From Escherichia coli (GTDB taxonomy: Bacteria > Pseudomonadota > Gammaproteobacteria > Enterobacterales > Enterobacteriaceae), in assembly GCF_003334785.1 (NCBI RefSeq), contig NZ_QOWV01000015.1: a DNA stretch of 64,000 nucleotides. One strand, written 5' to 3'. Below, piece by piece: positions 36,393-53,038 of this stretch. Numbering within the stretch: position 1 is the first letter of the stretch; each line of letters opens with the position of its first letter. Both the position numbers and the translations under genes were made by a program. The notes beneath the pieces are model-generated. The model worked only from the letters and a program-made list of their open reading frames with translations, was not told where the DNA came from and searched no databases.

Positions 36393-36734
36393 ATGATGAA
36401 AAAAAGTATTCTGGCGTTTCTGTTACTCACCAGTTCTGCAGCGGCGCTGGCTGCACCGCAGGTGATTACCGTCAGCCGTTTTGAAGTGGGTAAAGACAAA
36501 TGGGCGTTTAATCGCGAAGAGGTGATGCTGACTTGCAGACCGGGTAATGCTTTGTATGTCATTAACCCAAGTACCCTCGTGCAGTATCCTTTAAACGATA
36601 TCGCACAGAAGGAAGTTGCCAGTGGGAAGACTAAAGCCCAACCCATTTCGGTGATTCAGATTGATGATCCCAACAATCCCGGCGAAAAAATGAGTCTGGC
36701 ACCGTTTATAGAACGAGCTGAAAAACTCTGTTAA
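36393..36734 (+). CDS. yebY: YebY, DUF2511 periplasmic protein
   Basis: 113-aa ORF with signal peptide [20 protein letters not shown]. Confidence 0.8.
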
Positions 36735-36761
36735 TTACCTAAAATAGCCTTTTGATTTCCA

Positions 36762-36805
36762 ATAAAAAAACCGCCTCAGTTCTTTCACCAGAACGGGCGG
36801 TTTTT
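36762..36805. terminator. bidirectional terminator (yebY on plus, RyeA on minus)
   Basis: aaaaaaaccgcctcagttctttcaccagaacgggcggttttt. Confidence 0.7.
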
Positions 36806-37040
36806 AACATTTAAGCTGATGACCACCGCGCTTTTTATTGACCATTTTGCACGCAAACTGGAAAACCTGGCGTCGTCATCTATTCTTAAAGGGCAAGGCA
36901 ACTAAGCCTGCATTAATGCCAACTTTTAGCGCACGGCTCTCTCCCAAGAGCCATTTCCCTGGACCGAATACAGGAATCGTGTTCGGTCTCTTTTTATCTG
37001 TTAAAAGCCAGAAGCATTTCCTTCGCTGACTTTATAGTCA
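36766..37040 (-). ncRNA. ryeA: RyeA (SraC) antisense sRNA overlapping SdsR
   Basis: Known sense/antisense pair at this locus between yebY and pphA; boundaries approximate. Confidence 0.4.
36896..36995 (+). ncRNA. sdsR: SdsR (RyeB) sigma-S-dependent Hfq-binding sRNA
   Basis: Recalled sequence gcaaggcaactaagcctgcattaatgcc...ccatttccctggaccgaatacaggaatcgtgttcggtctcttttt with 3' terminator hairpin plus T-run on plus strand; 5' end approximate. Confidence 0.6.
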
Positions 37041-37129
37041 ACCATAACACACACTCTACTGTCTGAGTCCAGCATTTTTTAACATTCTTGTTAAGATTAT
37101 GTGATCTTTAGCGCGGGAGGAAAATATTG

Positions 37130-37786
37130 ATGAAACAGCCTGCGCCCGTTTATCAGAGAATTGCGGGTCATCAATGGCGACATATCTGGCTTTCTGGCGA
37201 TATACACGGTTGTCTTGAGCAGTTGCGCCGCAAATTATGGCATTGTCGTTTTGATCCGTGGCGAGATTTACTTATCTCAGTGGGAGACGTTATCGATCGT
37301 GGGCCGCAAAGTTTACGTTGTCTGCAGTTACTGGAACAACATTGGGTTCGTGCGGTAAGAGGCAATCATGAACAGATGGCGATGGATGCGCTGGCATCCC
37401 AGCAGATGTCTTTATGGTTGATGAATGGCGGCGACTGGTTTATTGCGCTGGCAGATAATCAACAGAAACAAGCGAAAACGGCGCTGGGGAAATGTCAGCA
37501 TTTGCCCTTTATTCTTGAAGTACACAGTCGCACCGGCAAGCATGTTATTGCTCATGCCGATTATCCAGATGATGTTTATGAATGGCAAAAGGACGTCGAT
37601 TTGCATCAGGTCTTGTGGAGCCGCTCGCGATTAAGTGAACGCCAAAAAGTGCAGGGAATTACAGGTGCTGATCATTTCTGGTTTGGTCATACACCGTTGC
37701 GACATCGCGTGGATATTGGCAACCTGCATTATATTGATACCGGTGCTGTCTTTGGGGGCGAACTGACTCTTGTGCAATTGCAATAA
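37130..37786 (+). CDS. pphA: serine/threonine protein phosphatase 1 (PPP family)
   Basis: MKQPAPVYQRIAGHQWRHIWLSGDIHGC... metallophosphatase motifs GDxHG, GDxxDRG, GNHE. Confidence 0.85.
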   Translation: MKQPAPVYQRIAGHQWRHIWLSGDIHGCLEQLRRKLWHCRFDPWRDLLISVGDVIDRGPQSLRCLQLLEQHWVRAVRGNHEQMAMDALASQQMSLWLMNGGDWFIALADNQQKQAKTALGKCQHLPFILEVHSRTGKHVIAHADYPDDVYEWQKDVDLHQVLWSRSRLSERQKVQGITGADHFWFGHTPLRHRVDIGNLHYIDTGAVFGGELTLVQLQ

Positions 37787-48451: not shown

Positions 48452-49823
48452 ATGCCCTGGATCGTGGCTGAGTGATACGTAAACCACTGACACAGGCAGC
48501 AATCACTGCCAGAATAGCCGCAGCCATCAGCGAGACGTGTGTACCATTATCTCCAAACTGATTTAGCATCAGCGCCACCAGCGCCGCGCCGCTACTCTGA
48601 CCCAGTAGACGAGCCGTTCCTAACATGCCACTGGCTCCACCGCTACGTTCGCGAGGCGCGGAGGTAATAATGGTGTGGTTATTGGGTGACTGGAATAAGC
48701 CAAATCCAGCACCACATAAGATCATCGGCCAGATAATATTGATATCCGCAGGTGACGCGGGCAGCAGAACCAGGGAAAAAAGCCCCGCAGCCATGATGAA
48801 CAACCCTAAAGCCCCCAGCAATCCTGCATGTACGCGTTCAATCAAATAGCCTGCCAGCGGAGCCATCACCATCGTTGCTAACGGCCACGGTGTCAGAAGT
48901 AAACCTGTTTCGACTTCACTACGCCCGAGCACGGTTTGCAGGTAAAAGGGCAGGGAAACCATTGCCAGCATTTGTGCGCAGAAAGAGCAAACAGATGTGC
49001 AAATAGAAAGTGAAAACAGCGGGATACGCAGTAAATCCACCGGTAGCAGCGGTACGGGAAGAGAAAGCTGGCGGCGAATAAAGAAAATACCAACAACAAC
49101 CATTACCACCAGTTCCGCAGCAATTAACGTCAGCGATTGCCCCTGAGCGAAACCACTCAACGCAGTGATAAGCAGGCCGAAGGTTAACGCGTTCATCACG
49201 GCGCTGGGCAGGTCGAAACGGGGTTTACTGGCGCGAGAACCATTGGGTGGCAGAAAACGCATCGCCAGAAGCAGGGCGATAATACCTAACGGTACGTTGA
49301 TTAAAAATAACCATTTCCAGGATGCGATGGAGAGGATTGCTGCAGCAATTGTCGGCCCGGCAGCAGAAGAGACGGCAACAATAAACGAGTTTATGCCCAT
49401 CCCTCTACCCAGAAAACGTTGTGGATAGATCAGGCGGATAAGTGCGGTATTAACGCTCATCAACGCTGCACCGCCGAAACCTTGTATGACACGCGCAAGG
49501 GTGAGCATTTGCAGCGAATCAGAAAGGGCGCAGAACAGTGAAGACAACAGAAAAACGACCAGACCGCATTTATAAATACGTCGATAGCCAAACATATCGC
49601 CCAGAAACGAAAACGAGAGCAGGGAGATGACAATGGCGATTTGATAGGCGTTCACTACCCAGATGGAACTGGCTGGCGTGGCATGAAGGTCCGTGGCGAT
49701 TGTTGGCAGGGCGACGTTGGCGATTGCGCCGTCAAGGACGGCCATCGAAATACCAATCACAATGGTTAATATCGCACCGTATCGCTGGGGCAATGGCAGG
49801 CCGTCGGCCTGAACTTTTGGCAT
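48450..49823 (-). CDS. yebQ: YebQ, MFS-family transporter
   Basis: Track ORF trimmed to MPKVQADGLPLPQRYGAILTIVIG... (457 aa); 14-TM MFS-like. Confidence 0.85.
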   Translation of the reverse strand: MPKVQADGLPLPQRYGAILTIVIGISMAVLDGAIANVALPTIATDLHATPASSIWVVNAYQIAIVISLLSFSFLGDMFGYRRIYKCGLVVFLLSSLFCALSDSLQMLTLARVIQGFGGAALMSVNTALIRLIYPQRFLGRGMGINSFIVAVSSAAGPTIAAAILSIASWKWLFLINVPLGIIALLLAMRFLPPNGSRASKPRFDLPSAVMNALTFGLLITALSGFAQGQSLTLIAAELVVMVVVGIFFIRRQLSLPVPLLPVDLLRIPLFSLSICTSVCSFCAQMLAMVSLPFYLQTVLGRSEVETGLLLTPWPLATMVMAPLAGYLIERVHAGLLGALGLFIMAAGLFSLVLLPASPADINIIWPMILCGAGFGLFQSPNNHTIITSAPRERSGGASGMLGTARLLGQSSGAALVALMLNQFGDNGTHVSLMAAAILAVIAACVSGLRITQPRSRA

Positions 49824-51838: not shown

Positions 51839-52507
51839 TCCTTCCTCAATCTTGAGTAACCCCGTCGTTGAAGGGTTACTCAATTCATCCTGATTATACG
51901 CACTGTCATGGTGCAACTGCTTCAAATTAAAACTCTGGTCTGACTTCAAATAATTATCATATTATTTATTTGCGTAACGGGATATCAGAAAAAGATATTT
52001 ACCCCATTAATTTATTAGGATGTTTACATCGGATTTGTGATTAAGCGTGGTATTATTTATTAGCGAAACGTTTCTCTCTTGATTTTTTTGCTCATTCATC
52101 AATTTTTCTTATTTTAAATTTACAATCCCTTTGGGGATTGACTTCTCTTTAGGGTAATTAATAGCCGTTAACTGACTGTTTTATGAGAAAAAGTGATATA
52201 ACTTTTTATTCATTGCATAGCAAAAAATGTGATATTGCACGCACTATGTAATAACTTCTCCCACTGGCCTGGAACAACTGAACTTATTGAACTATGTTAG
52301 AAAATACGCCAGTTTAAGTATCTGCCTGAACTGGCAAGGTTAAGCACAATGATATATCGGCGCGTATTCCGTTGCATAAGTGTGCAAAAAAAGTGGAAGA
52401 CGTATCGAGATTTGTGCGTCTGATCGAGACATGTTTAAAAATGGCTTGCCATAATTAACGTTGTATGTGATAACAGATTTCGGGTTAAACGAGGTACAGT
52501 TCTGTTT

Positions 52508-52651
52508 ATGTGTGGCATTTTCAGTAAAGAAGTCCTGAGTAAACACGTTGACGTTGAATACCGCTTCTCTGCCGAGCCTTATATTGGTGCCTCATGCAGT
52601 AATGTGTCAGTTTTATCTATGTTATGCCTGCGGGCGAAGAAAACAATCTAA
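52508..52651 (+). CDS. yobF: YobF, 47-aa small stress-induced protein
   Basis: [53 protein letters not shown] read by eye; 12 bp upstream of cspC; below track cutoff. Confidence 0.7.
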
Positions 52652-52663
52652 GGAATTTTTCAA

Positions 52664-52873
52664 ATGGCAAAGATTAAAGGTCAGGTTAAGTGGTTCAACG
52701 AGTCTAAAGGTTTTGGCTTCATTACTCCGGCTGATGGCAGCAAAGATGTGTTCGTACACTTCTCCGCTATCCAGGGTAATGGCTTCAAAACTCTGGCTGA
52801 AGGTCAGAACGTTGAGTTCGAAATTCAGGACGGCCAGAAAGGTCCGGCAGCTGTTAACGTAACAGCTATCTGA
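52664..52873 (+). CDS. cspC: cold-shock-domain protein CspC
   Basis: 69-aa [40 protein letters not shown]... with RNP1 motif. Confidence 0.95.
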
Positions 52874-52919
52874 TCGAATCCACTGATCTGAAGTGTGAAT
52901 ACGCTTCAATCTCGCTATA

Positions 52920-52947
52920 AAGCCTCGTCGAATGCGAGGCTTTTTAC
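52920..52947 (+). terminator. intrinsic terminator after cspC
   Basis: aagcctcgtcgaatgcgaggcttttt. Confidence 0.8.
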
Positions 52948-53038
52948 TATGCTTTATCTTCGCTCCTGGCGTTCGGATATTTGCCCGCCGCGTGATTCGC
53001 GTTACACTTGCGGCCTTTAGTATCCTGCCGGAGTTGTC

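Follow-up and report, generated by a model that had tools for sequence, protein, structure and literature searches.

The sdsR/ryeA sense–antisense RNA locus in the yebY–pphA spacer of an Escherichia coli genome

The SdsR/RyeA pair described here is already known and belongs to the textbook biology of E. coli. For SdsR (RyeB), σS dependence, Hfq association and repression of ompD have been established (PMC3333887), and tolC, mutS, yhcB and ompD are known as its trans targets from work on K-12 and Salmonella (PMC6610125, PMC3333887). Through it, RpoS is connected with mismatch repair (mutS) as well as with efflux and the composition of the envelope (tolC, ompD); the locus additionally controls the phosphatase gene pphA and serves prophage integration. 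In vitro, EσS alone yields only SdsR, and Eσ70 alone yields almost only RyeA (SraC), with SdsR at ~10% of the RyeA level (PMC6610125). Mutual degradation of both RNAs, transcriptional interference and read-through from the sdsR promoter into pphA have been described for K-12 (PMC6610125, Choi et al. 2019), and ryeA–ryeB forms the top stationary-phase RNase III double-stranded RNA cluster in p19-capture data (PMC7373196). The pair is also listed as a type VIII toxin–antitoxin (TA) system (PMC10767807). This cataloguing goes back to the toxicity of overexpressed SdsR, which acts through repression of yhcB and from which RyeA rescues the cell—a result of Choi 2018 that we take in the form in which it is cited elsewhere.

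Here, we describe this locus in a further E. coli genome and compare it with the K-12 system. The window is the whole analysed stretch of 64,000 nucleotides from contig NZ_QOWV01000015.1, and all positions refer to it. The main relevance is one of annotation, as two well-characterised regulatory RNAs reside in an apparently empty gap of 395 bp; at the same time, the case illustrates that a known sRNA locus is recognisable from raw sequence alone.

Identity and boundaries of the two RNAs

In both the ORF list and RefSeq, the last base of yebY is 36734 and the first of pphA 37130, which leaves a spacer of 395 bp. An earlier note on this DNA had described a gap of 390 bp without any ORF: it was right in that no coding sequence is annotated there, whereas the length has to be corrected and three short ORFs are listed within the spacer. 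The elements of the locus are as follows.

36393–36734, plus strand: yebY coding sequence, an ORF of 113 aa (RefSeq: YebY family protein) and the upstream synteny anchor of sdsR.
36762–37033, minus strand: RyeA (SraC) antisense sRNA, 272 nt in K-12 coordinates, enclosing the whole sdsR gene and its promoter.
36764–36805, both strands: bidirectional intrinsic terminator hairpin (A7, GC-rich stem, T5), ending yebY on the plus and RyeA on the minus strand.
36859–36886, plus strand: σS-type promoter of sdsR as read from the sequence, with −35 TGGAAA (36859–36864), a 16-bp spacer and −10 TATTCT (36881–36886).
36893–36995, plus strand: SdsR (RyeB) sRNA of ~102–104 nt, matched by RF00111 and 100% identical to MG1655 b4433.
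36961–36995, plus strand: Rho-independent terminator of SdsR, with an 11-bp stem (36961–36989), a 7-nt loop and a CUUUUU tail; leaky.
36973–36995, both strands: final 23 bp of sdsR, the core of a prophage attachment site that is unoccupied in the window and found as a 23-mer at both prophage ends in strain PV0838.
36996–37129, plus strand: sdsR–pphA spacer, leader of the read-through sdsR–pphA transcript (PMC6610125), whose opposite strand holds the promoter and 5′ end of RyeA.
37041–37049, minus strand: σ70 promoter of ryeA with the extended −10 TGtTATGGT (TG at 37049–37048, TATGGT from 37046 to 37041).
37130–37786, plus strand: pphA (PrpA), Ser/Thr phosphoprotein phosphatase with an ATG start, given in RefSeq and matching NCBIfam NF008516 with 438 bits against a cutoff of 326.

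The identity of the spacer follows two lines of comparison. Aligned to E. coli K-12 MG1655, it is identical at 392 of 395 positions, the differences lying at 36813, 36828 and 37074. MG1655 annotates both sdsR (b4433, 104 nt) and ryeA (b4432, 272 nt) within its yebY–pphA spacer, and carried over to the window this annotation places sdsR at 36892–36995 on the plus strand and ryeA from 37033 to 36762 on the minus strand. sdsR is identical over 104/104 nt and ryeA over 270/272 nt, with the substitutions at 36813 and 36828 falling into its 3′ third. The second line is the Rfam scan of 34–40 kb, which was run at a permissive threshold and gave only noise besides two strong matches: SdsR_RyeB (RF00111) at 36896–36995 on the plus strand (114.4 bits against a gathering score of 38, model positions 1–100 of 100, E = 1.7e-22 for the 6-kb scan), and SraC_RyeA (RF00101) from 36999 to 36855 on the minus strand (175.1 bits against 37, model positions 1–145 of 145, E = 2.7e-41 for the same scan). 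When the whole window was scanned at gathering thresholds, E-values of 1.8e-21 for SdsR and 2.9e-40 for RyeA were obtained.

The earlier note had placed SdsR on the plus strand and RyeA on the opposite strand of the same DNA, and had proposed an Rfam scan of both strands and an alignment to E. coli sdsR and ryeA as checks. Both checks bear out the assignment, with either family matched over its full length at 3–5 times the gathering score. We consider it close to certain that the spacer is the E. coli sdsR/ryeA locus in a K-12-like arrangement with its prophage site unoccupied; nothing in the sequence speaks against the sdsR/ryeA identity.

The same scans returned a number of matches outside this locus or below threshold. 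Sub-threshold matches nearby (rliE, mir-216 and snoRNA families, E = 0.3–0.8) are attributed to chance, and the one to rliE merely overlaps the yebY terminator hairpin. Further gathering-level matches in the window are the MicL sRNA at 1157–1464 on the plus strand (370 bits), a cspA-type thermoregulator 5′ UTR at 52488–52948 on the plus strand (135 bits), naRNA4/CssrE at 15753–15828 on the plus strand (61 bits, barely above threshold) and ES036/CssrF at 5400–5442 on the minus strand (45 bits).

Each of the 5426 complete E. coli genomes searched contains the spacer, and many match the window with 100% identity. On the identical stretch of strain ECONIH4, RefSeq lists yobA, copD, yebY, pphA, yebW, yebV and rsmF and leaves the gap empty; likewise, no ncRNA stands between yebY and pphA in the RefSeq/PGAP records of window-identical DNA (e.g., NZ_CP026399.1). 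This agrees with the remark of the earlier note that an ORF track is blind to the sRNA pair. As sdsR and ryeA are annotated only in the curated MG1655 record and are missing from the PGAP records, both sRNAs appear to be systematically absent from routine E. coli annotation. The missing ncRNA in RefSeq/PGAP is an annotation gap and no counter-evidence.

The boundaries of SdsR can be placed with the help of the K-12 data. There, its transcription start site lies 1 nt downstream of the older annotation, which corresponds to 36893 in the window; the RNA retains its 5′ triphosphate, and its 3′ ends at +100 to +102 correspond to 36992–36994 (PMC6610125). In the window, the SdsR start follows the yebY stop codon by 159 nt on the same strand. 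The RNA consists of a 5′ hairpin, a single-stranded conserved core, an internal GGCUCU/AGAGCC hairpin and a terminator hairpin with U-tail, and folds with −34.8 kcal/mol (z = −4.05). The terminator by itself reaches −15.8 kcal/mol (z = −3.7), a value matched by 0 of 200 shuffled sequences. The earlier note had put this terminator at about 36962–36995; the stem occupies 36961–36989 and is followed by CTTTTT up to 36995, and in general the sequence features named there are all found either in place or a few bases off.

Both promoters were located by reading the sequence together with the primers of published promoter mutants. Hallmarks of σS promoters are a C at −13, T/G at −14, a C at −8, an A/T-rich discriminator and a 16-bp spacer (PMC3333887, Frohlich et al. 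2012). The sdsR promoter in the window shows these σS-selective features, with C(−13) at 36880 and an A/T-rich TAA discriminator that carries the element through 36889. The published −10 mutant of sdsR (primers PM_SdsRF/R) swaps TATTCT for CTCGAG, and that of ryeA (primer PM_RyeAF) swaps ACCATA, as read on the plus strand, for CTCGAG (PMC6610125). Since exactly these hexamers are replaced, they represent the experimentally defined −10 boxes; TATTCT of sdsR and TATGGT of ryeA are both unaltered in the window. A generic σ70 consensus scan, which required at least 9/12 positions overall and at least 4/6 per hexamer, missed the promoters of both sdsR and ryeA. This is a matter of its thresholds, as sdsR reaches 8/12 positions and ryeA combines an extended −10 with a poor −35.

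For RyeA, three adjacent start sites are known in K-12, the most downstream of which corresponds to 37033, and its 3′ ends at +261 to +270 correspond to 36773–36764, in the U-tract of the bidirectional hairpin (PMC6610125). In the window, the −10 box sits 7 nt before +1 at 37033, and the RNA starts 38 nt past the SdsR 3′ end. The Rfam model spans just 145 of the 272 nt; the fold of RyeA has a z-score of −3.1. The RyeA unit hence brackets sdsR entirely, with its promoter beyond the SdsR 3′ end and its terminator upstream of the sdsR promoter. This terminator is the hairpin at 36766–36805, for which the earlier note had given 36766–36803 and a bidirectional character. Flanked by A7 (36764–36770) and T5 (36801–36805), it is stable on both strands: the plus strand gives −19.8 kcal/mol (z = −6.3), and the minus strand, where it carries a U7 tail, −20.6 kcal/mol (z = −4.5); on either strand, 0 of 200 shuffles folded as well. 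As RyeA ends here, the hairpin serves as its terminator as well as that of yebY.

Variation at the locus within E. coli

One variation of the locus is the insertion of a prophage at the 3′ end of sdsR. The spacer is split in two in 237 of 5426 E. coli genomes. In E. coli PV0838, the match to the window stops at 36996, at the end of sdsR. Genes for a tyrosine integrase and an excisionase come next (6001–6400 of the extracted locus), as part of a complete lambdoid prophage (~49.4 kb) with recET and nleG7. The prophage lies between sdsR and pphA and is bordered by copies of the 23-mer at 97–119 and 49463–49485 of the extracted stretch. The copy beside pphA is identical to the window sequence, and the one completing sdsR bears two substitutions (GTATT...TTTTTTT) and is evidently phage-borne. 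The incoming phage brings a replacement 3′ end along, so that SdsR stays intact. A 161-nt probe for the SdsR–prophage junction was at least 80% covered in 228 of the 5426 genomes, among which are STEC of serogroups O26 and O103. In such PV0838-type lysogens, the ryeA promoter and pphA come to lie ~49 kb from sdsR. A corresponding site has been reported for the Salmonella phage PhiW104, whose attachment site lies in the last 23 bp of ryeB, an insertion hot spot (Balbontin 2008, as summarised in PMC7380047); in the PhiW104 case, ryeA levels fall and ryeB levels rise.

Two other genomes show deviations of their own around sdsR. In the type strain of Escherichia albertii (NBRC 107761), the sequence behind SdsR is unrelated to the E. 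coli pphA leader and phage-like, resembling the attL side of PV0838 (…ctccccgaaat…ttctgtattc(c)ggtcttttttggttatatcac…), and no pphA homologue was found in the 11.9-kb locus. Strain FDAARGOS_944 (NZ_CP065613.1) carries an IS1A in the yebY–pphA spacer, at 5249–6229 of the extracted locus; the match resumes at window position 36902, which puts IS1A within or at the 5′ end of sdsR, and copD is truncated too. The window itself bears neither the prophage nor the IS1A insertion at sdsR.

On the level of single nucleotides, position 37074 varies. It is A in the window (T on the RyeA strand) and G in K-12, and lies 41 nt upstream of the RyeA start; A is the minority allele, present in 176 of 5426 complete E. 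coli genomes versus 5209. It turns AAAAAC into a −10-like AAAAAT (37079 to 37074), ~33 nt upstream of the K-12 ryeA −10 box and adjoining a TGtTAAAAA motif that is common to both alleles. Shigella and Salmonella have a −10 box ~35 nt upstream of that of K-12, and their SraC is ~35 nt longer (PMC3333887). With A37074, transcription of RyeA might begin at a point further upstream than in K-12, or be initiated more strongly. If true, this would shift the antisense balance over SdsR and pphA; we consider such an effect on the ryeA start improbable, and the allele is unlikely to matter.

Conservation and the role of the antisense RNA

A DNA-pattern scan with the invariant SdsR core was performed on one genome per GTDB species and gave at least 120 loci, with Salmonella not among them. 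The matches listed come from Escherichia, Citrobacter, Enterobacter, Klebsiella, Kluyvera, Serratia, Yersinia, Rahnella, Dickeya, Brenneria, Hafnia and others, and within this set the sequence of SdsR is almost unchanged across more than 100 species of enterobacteria. Of the 104 listed loci with at least 600 nt of flank, 101 have a yebY homologue upstream in the same orientation, 133–213 nt before the SdsR start.

From the matches listed (at least 120 loci), 77 distinct enterobacterial sequences were aligned. Covariation was assessed in the 5′ and the terminator stem, the two stems that are not fixed by the search pattern. Among these 77 sequences, 99.2% of the cells are standard pairs—100% of the cells are paired in the terminator stem—and six pairs show double changes, three of them in each of the two stems. 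The covariation score was reached by 0 of 500 column shuffles, and pairing falls to 21–43% if the 3′ partners are slid along the alignment. The internal GGCUCU/AGAGCC stem is invariant but uninformative, as it is part of the search pattern. The single-stranded stretch AUGCCAACUUUUAGCGCAC is nearly invariant in the 77 sequences among the matches listed; it lies partly inside the search pattern, and its AAUGCCAACUUU part lies outside. In the same 77 homologues, the sdsR promoter is invariant at −35 TGG, C(−13), T(−12), A(−11) and T(−7).

The downstream side behaves differently. In most genera listed, the sequence diverges at once past the SdsR terminator; among the matches listed, pphA follows directly in no genera but Escherichia, Silvania, Pseudenterobacter and, in a few cases, Citrobacter. 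In the Citrobacter and Silvania loci with pphA directly downstream, the ryeA −10 box TATGGT is retained, and elsewhere the downstream sequence is unrelated. Earlier work found sraC in only about half of the species examined and with a varying promoter position (PMC3333887). The present data accord with the view of Frohlich et al. that sdsR and not sraC is the broadly selected gene (PMC3333887). A further short block in the pphA leader, outside the ryeA −10 box, is common to E. coli, Citrobacter and Silvania (37060–37100 in the window; gtccag(c/g)Nttttt(t)…ttg(t/c)taa(a/g)att) and could be the upstream promoter region of ryeA or an element of the pphA leader.

These data bear on how the antisense RNA should be understood. 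With the same identities, SdsR may be the selected, functional regulator and RyeA no true antitoxin: either an antisense modulator restricted to some lineages, or a transcript that arises as by-product from a promoter within the leader of pphA; the label "type VIII toxin–antitoxin" would then over-read an overexpression phenotype. The patchy occurrence of sraC and its variable promoter position speak for this, as does the immediate divergence past the terminator in most genera—even in the E. albertii type strain—and the adjacency of pphA in few genera among the matches listed. Moreover, deletion of the sraC promoter lifts SdsR just ~1.5-fold (PMC3333887), and a prophage parts the ryeA promoter from sdsR in 228 of 5426 E. 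coli genomes, although these strains are viable. However, TATGGT is kept in those Citrobacter and Silvania loci that keep pphA downstream, reciprocal control and transcriptional interference are clear in K-12 (PMC6610125), and yhcB-mediated toxicity of SdsR with its rescue by RyeA is reported (Choi 2018, as cited elsewhere). On balance, we regard the modulator or by-product role as possible, albeit rather doubtful.

A different proposal is that the plus-strand element acts mainly in cis as leader or attenuator of pphA, the ~100-nt RNA being a functionless terminated leader. The sdsR promoter does drive pphA by read-through of the terminator (PMC6610125). However, SdsR is near-identical in more than 100 species listed and pphA directly downstream in a handful of them; moreover, trans targets of SdsR have been validated, and the RNA is found in association with Hfq. 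As SdsR is conserved where pphA is absent, a pure leader function fails and is highly improbable. Even less probable, and rejected for the lack of a family match and the RNA-type conservation, is an unannotated small protein with the RNA features as secondary traits: mechanical ORFs of 28, 38 (36785–36901, minus strand) and 63 aa (36838–37029, plus strand, TTG start) are present in the ORF list, but the 63-aa ORF begins upstream of the sdsR start site and crosses the terminator, the variation in the 77 homologues listed is RNA-like with compensatory stem changes and invariant single-stranded segments, conservation ends at the SdsR terminator, and the three spacer ORFs have no NCBIfam family match and are annotated neither in MG1655 nor in RefSeq. 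The preferred reading is hence the K-12-like sdsR/ryeA locus, with SdsR as sRNA and RyeA as its antisense partner.

Mechanism and comparison with known systems

In the window itself, the identity of both RNAs, their boundaries, the promoter and terminator elements, structure and conservation are established. Expression, sigma dependence, Hfq binding, targets, co-degradation by RNase III, interference and read-through are taken from the literature and would apply here by analogy, with a locus that is identical at 392 of 395 positions and an identical SdsR. On these grounds, the σS-type promoter (TGGAAA, 16-bp spacer, cTATTCT) is expected to start SdsR at 36893, and most transcripts would halt at the intrinsic terminator at 36961–36995 to give an sRNA of ~102 nt. 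According to the literature, this RNA reaches hundreds of copies per cell in stationary phase and is recovered in Hfq pull-downs; here, too, it would repress mRNAs in trans by base pairing. A fraction of the transcripts would pass the terminator and yield pphA mRNA. The terminator is leaky by design, given that pphA transcripts originate at the sdsR promoter and arise by read-through (PMC6610125).

In growing cells, the extended −10 element TGtTATGGT would allow σ70 to start RyeA at 37033; the transcript is predicted to traverse the sdsR gene and its promoter and to halt at the hairpin behind yebY (~36764). RyeA would then restrain SdsR in growing cells by two routes. On the one hand, the full complementarity over ~100 nt would lead to a duplex that is cut by RNase III. 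On the other hand, convergent transcription would interfere with the sdsR promoter and, hence, with pphA.

Compared with SdsR of K-12 (RF00111, b4433), the window has the same 104-nt sequence, position after yebY, C(−13) promoter, three hairpins and terminator, and there is no difference within the RNA. In the 3′ arm of the terminator stem, window and K-12 SdsR share a G that is an A in most other Enterobacterales, and a U–G pair thus takes the place of U–A. RyeA shares with its K-12 counterpart (RF00101, b4432) the antisense arrangement, the −10 box, the context of the start site and the terminator at 270/272 identity; it differs by the substitutions at 36813 and 36828, with 37074 lying upstream of the start.

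Among attachment sites in sRNA and tRNA genes—ssrA, tRNA genes, and ryeB with PhiW104 in Salmonella DT104—sdsR finds its place with the last 23 bp as core of the site, which, unlike in those examples, is empty in the window. With RNase III-processed cis-antisense pairs such as the spf locus, ArcZ and its antisense, and type I TA antisense RNAs like RdlD/ldrD, the locus shares the convergent overlap and a long duplex that is cleaved (PMC7373196). In contrast to these, both partners of SdsR/RyeA are non-coding sRNAs, one of which also acts in trans via Hfq.

The last comparison concerns TA systems. For type VIII, which comprises SdsR/RyeA and creTA, TADB 3.0 asks for a distance of <0 bp between opposite-strand RNAs (PMC10767807), and in the window SdsR (36893–36995) lies wholly within RyeA (36762–37033). 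The locus is that of the founding SdsR/RyeA example, with opposite and overlapping strands. Unlike classic TA modules, sdsR/ryeA is a syntenic locus of the core genome and no mobile addiction module, and its "toxin" is a conserved global regulator. We regard the "toxin–antitoxin" label as a debatable description of an sRNA/antisense mechanism that is itself secure.
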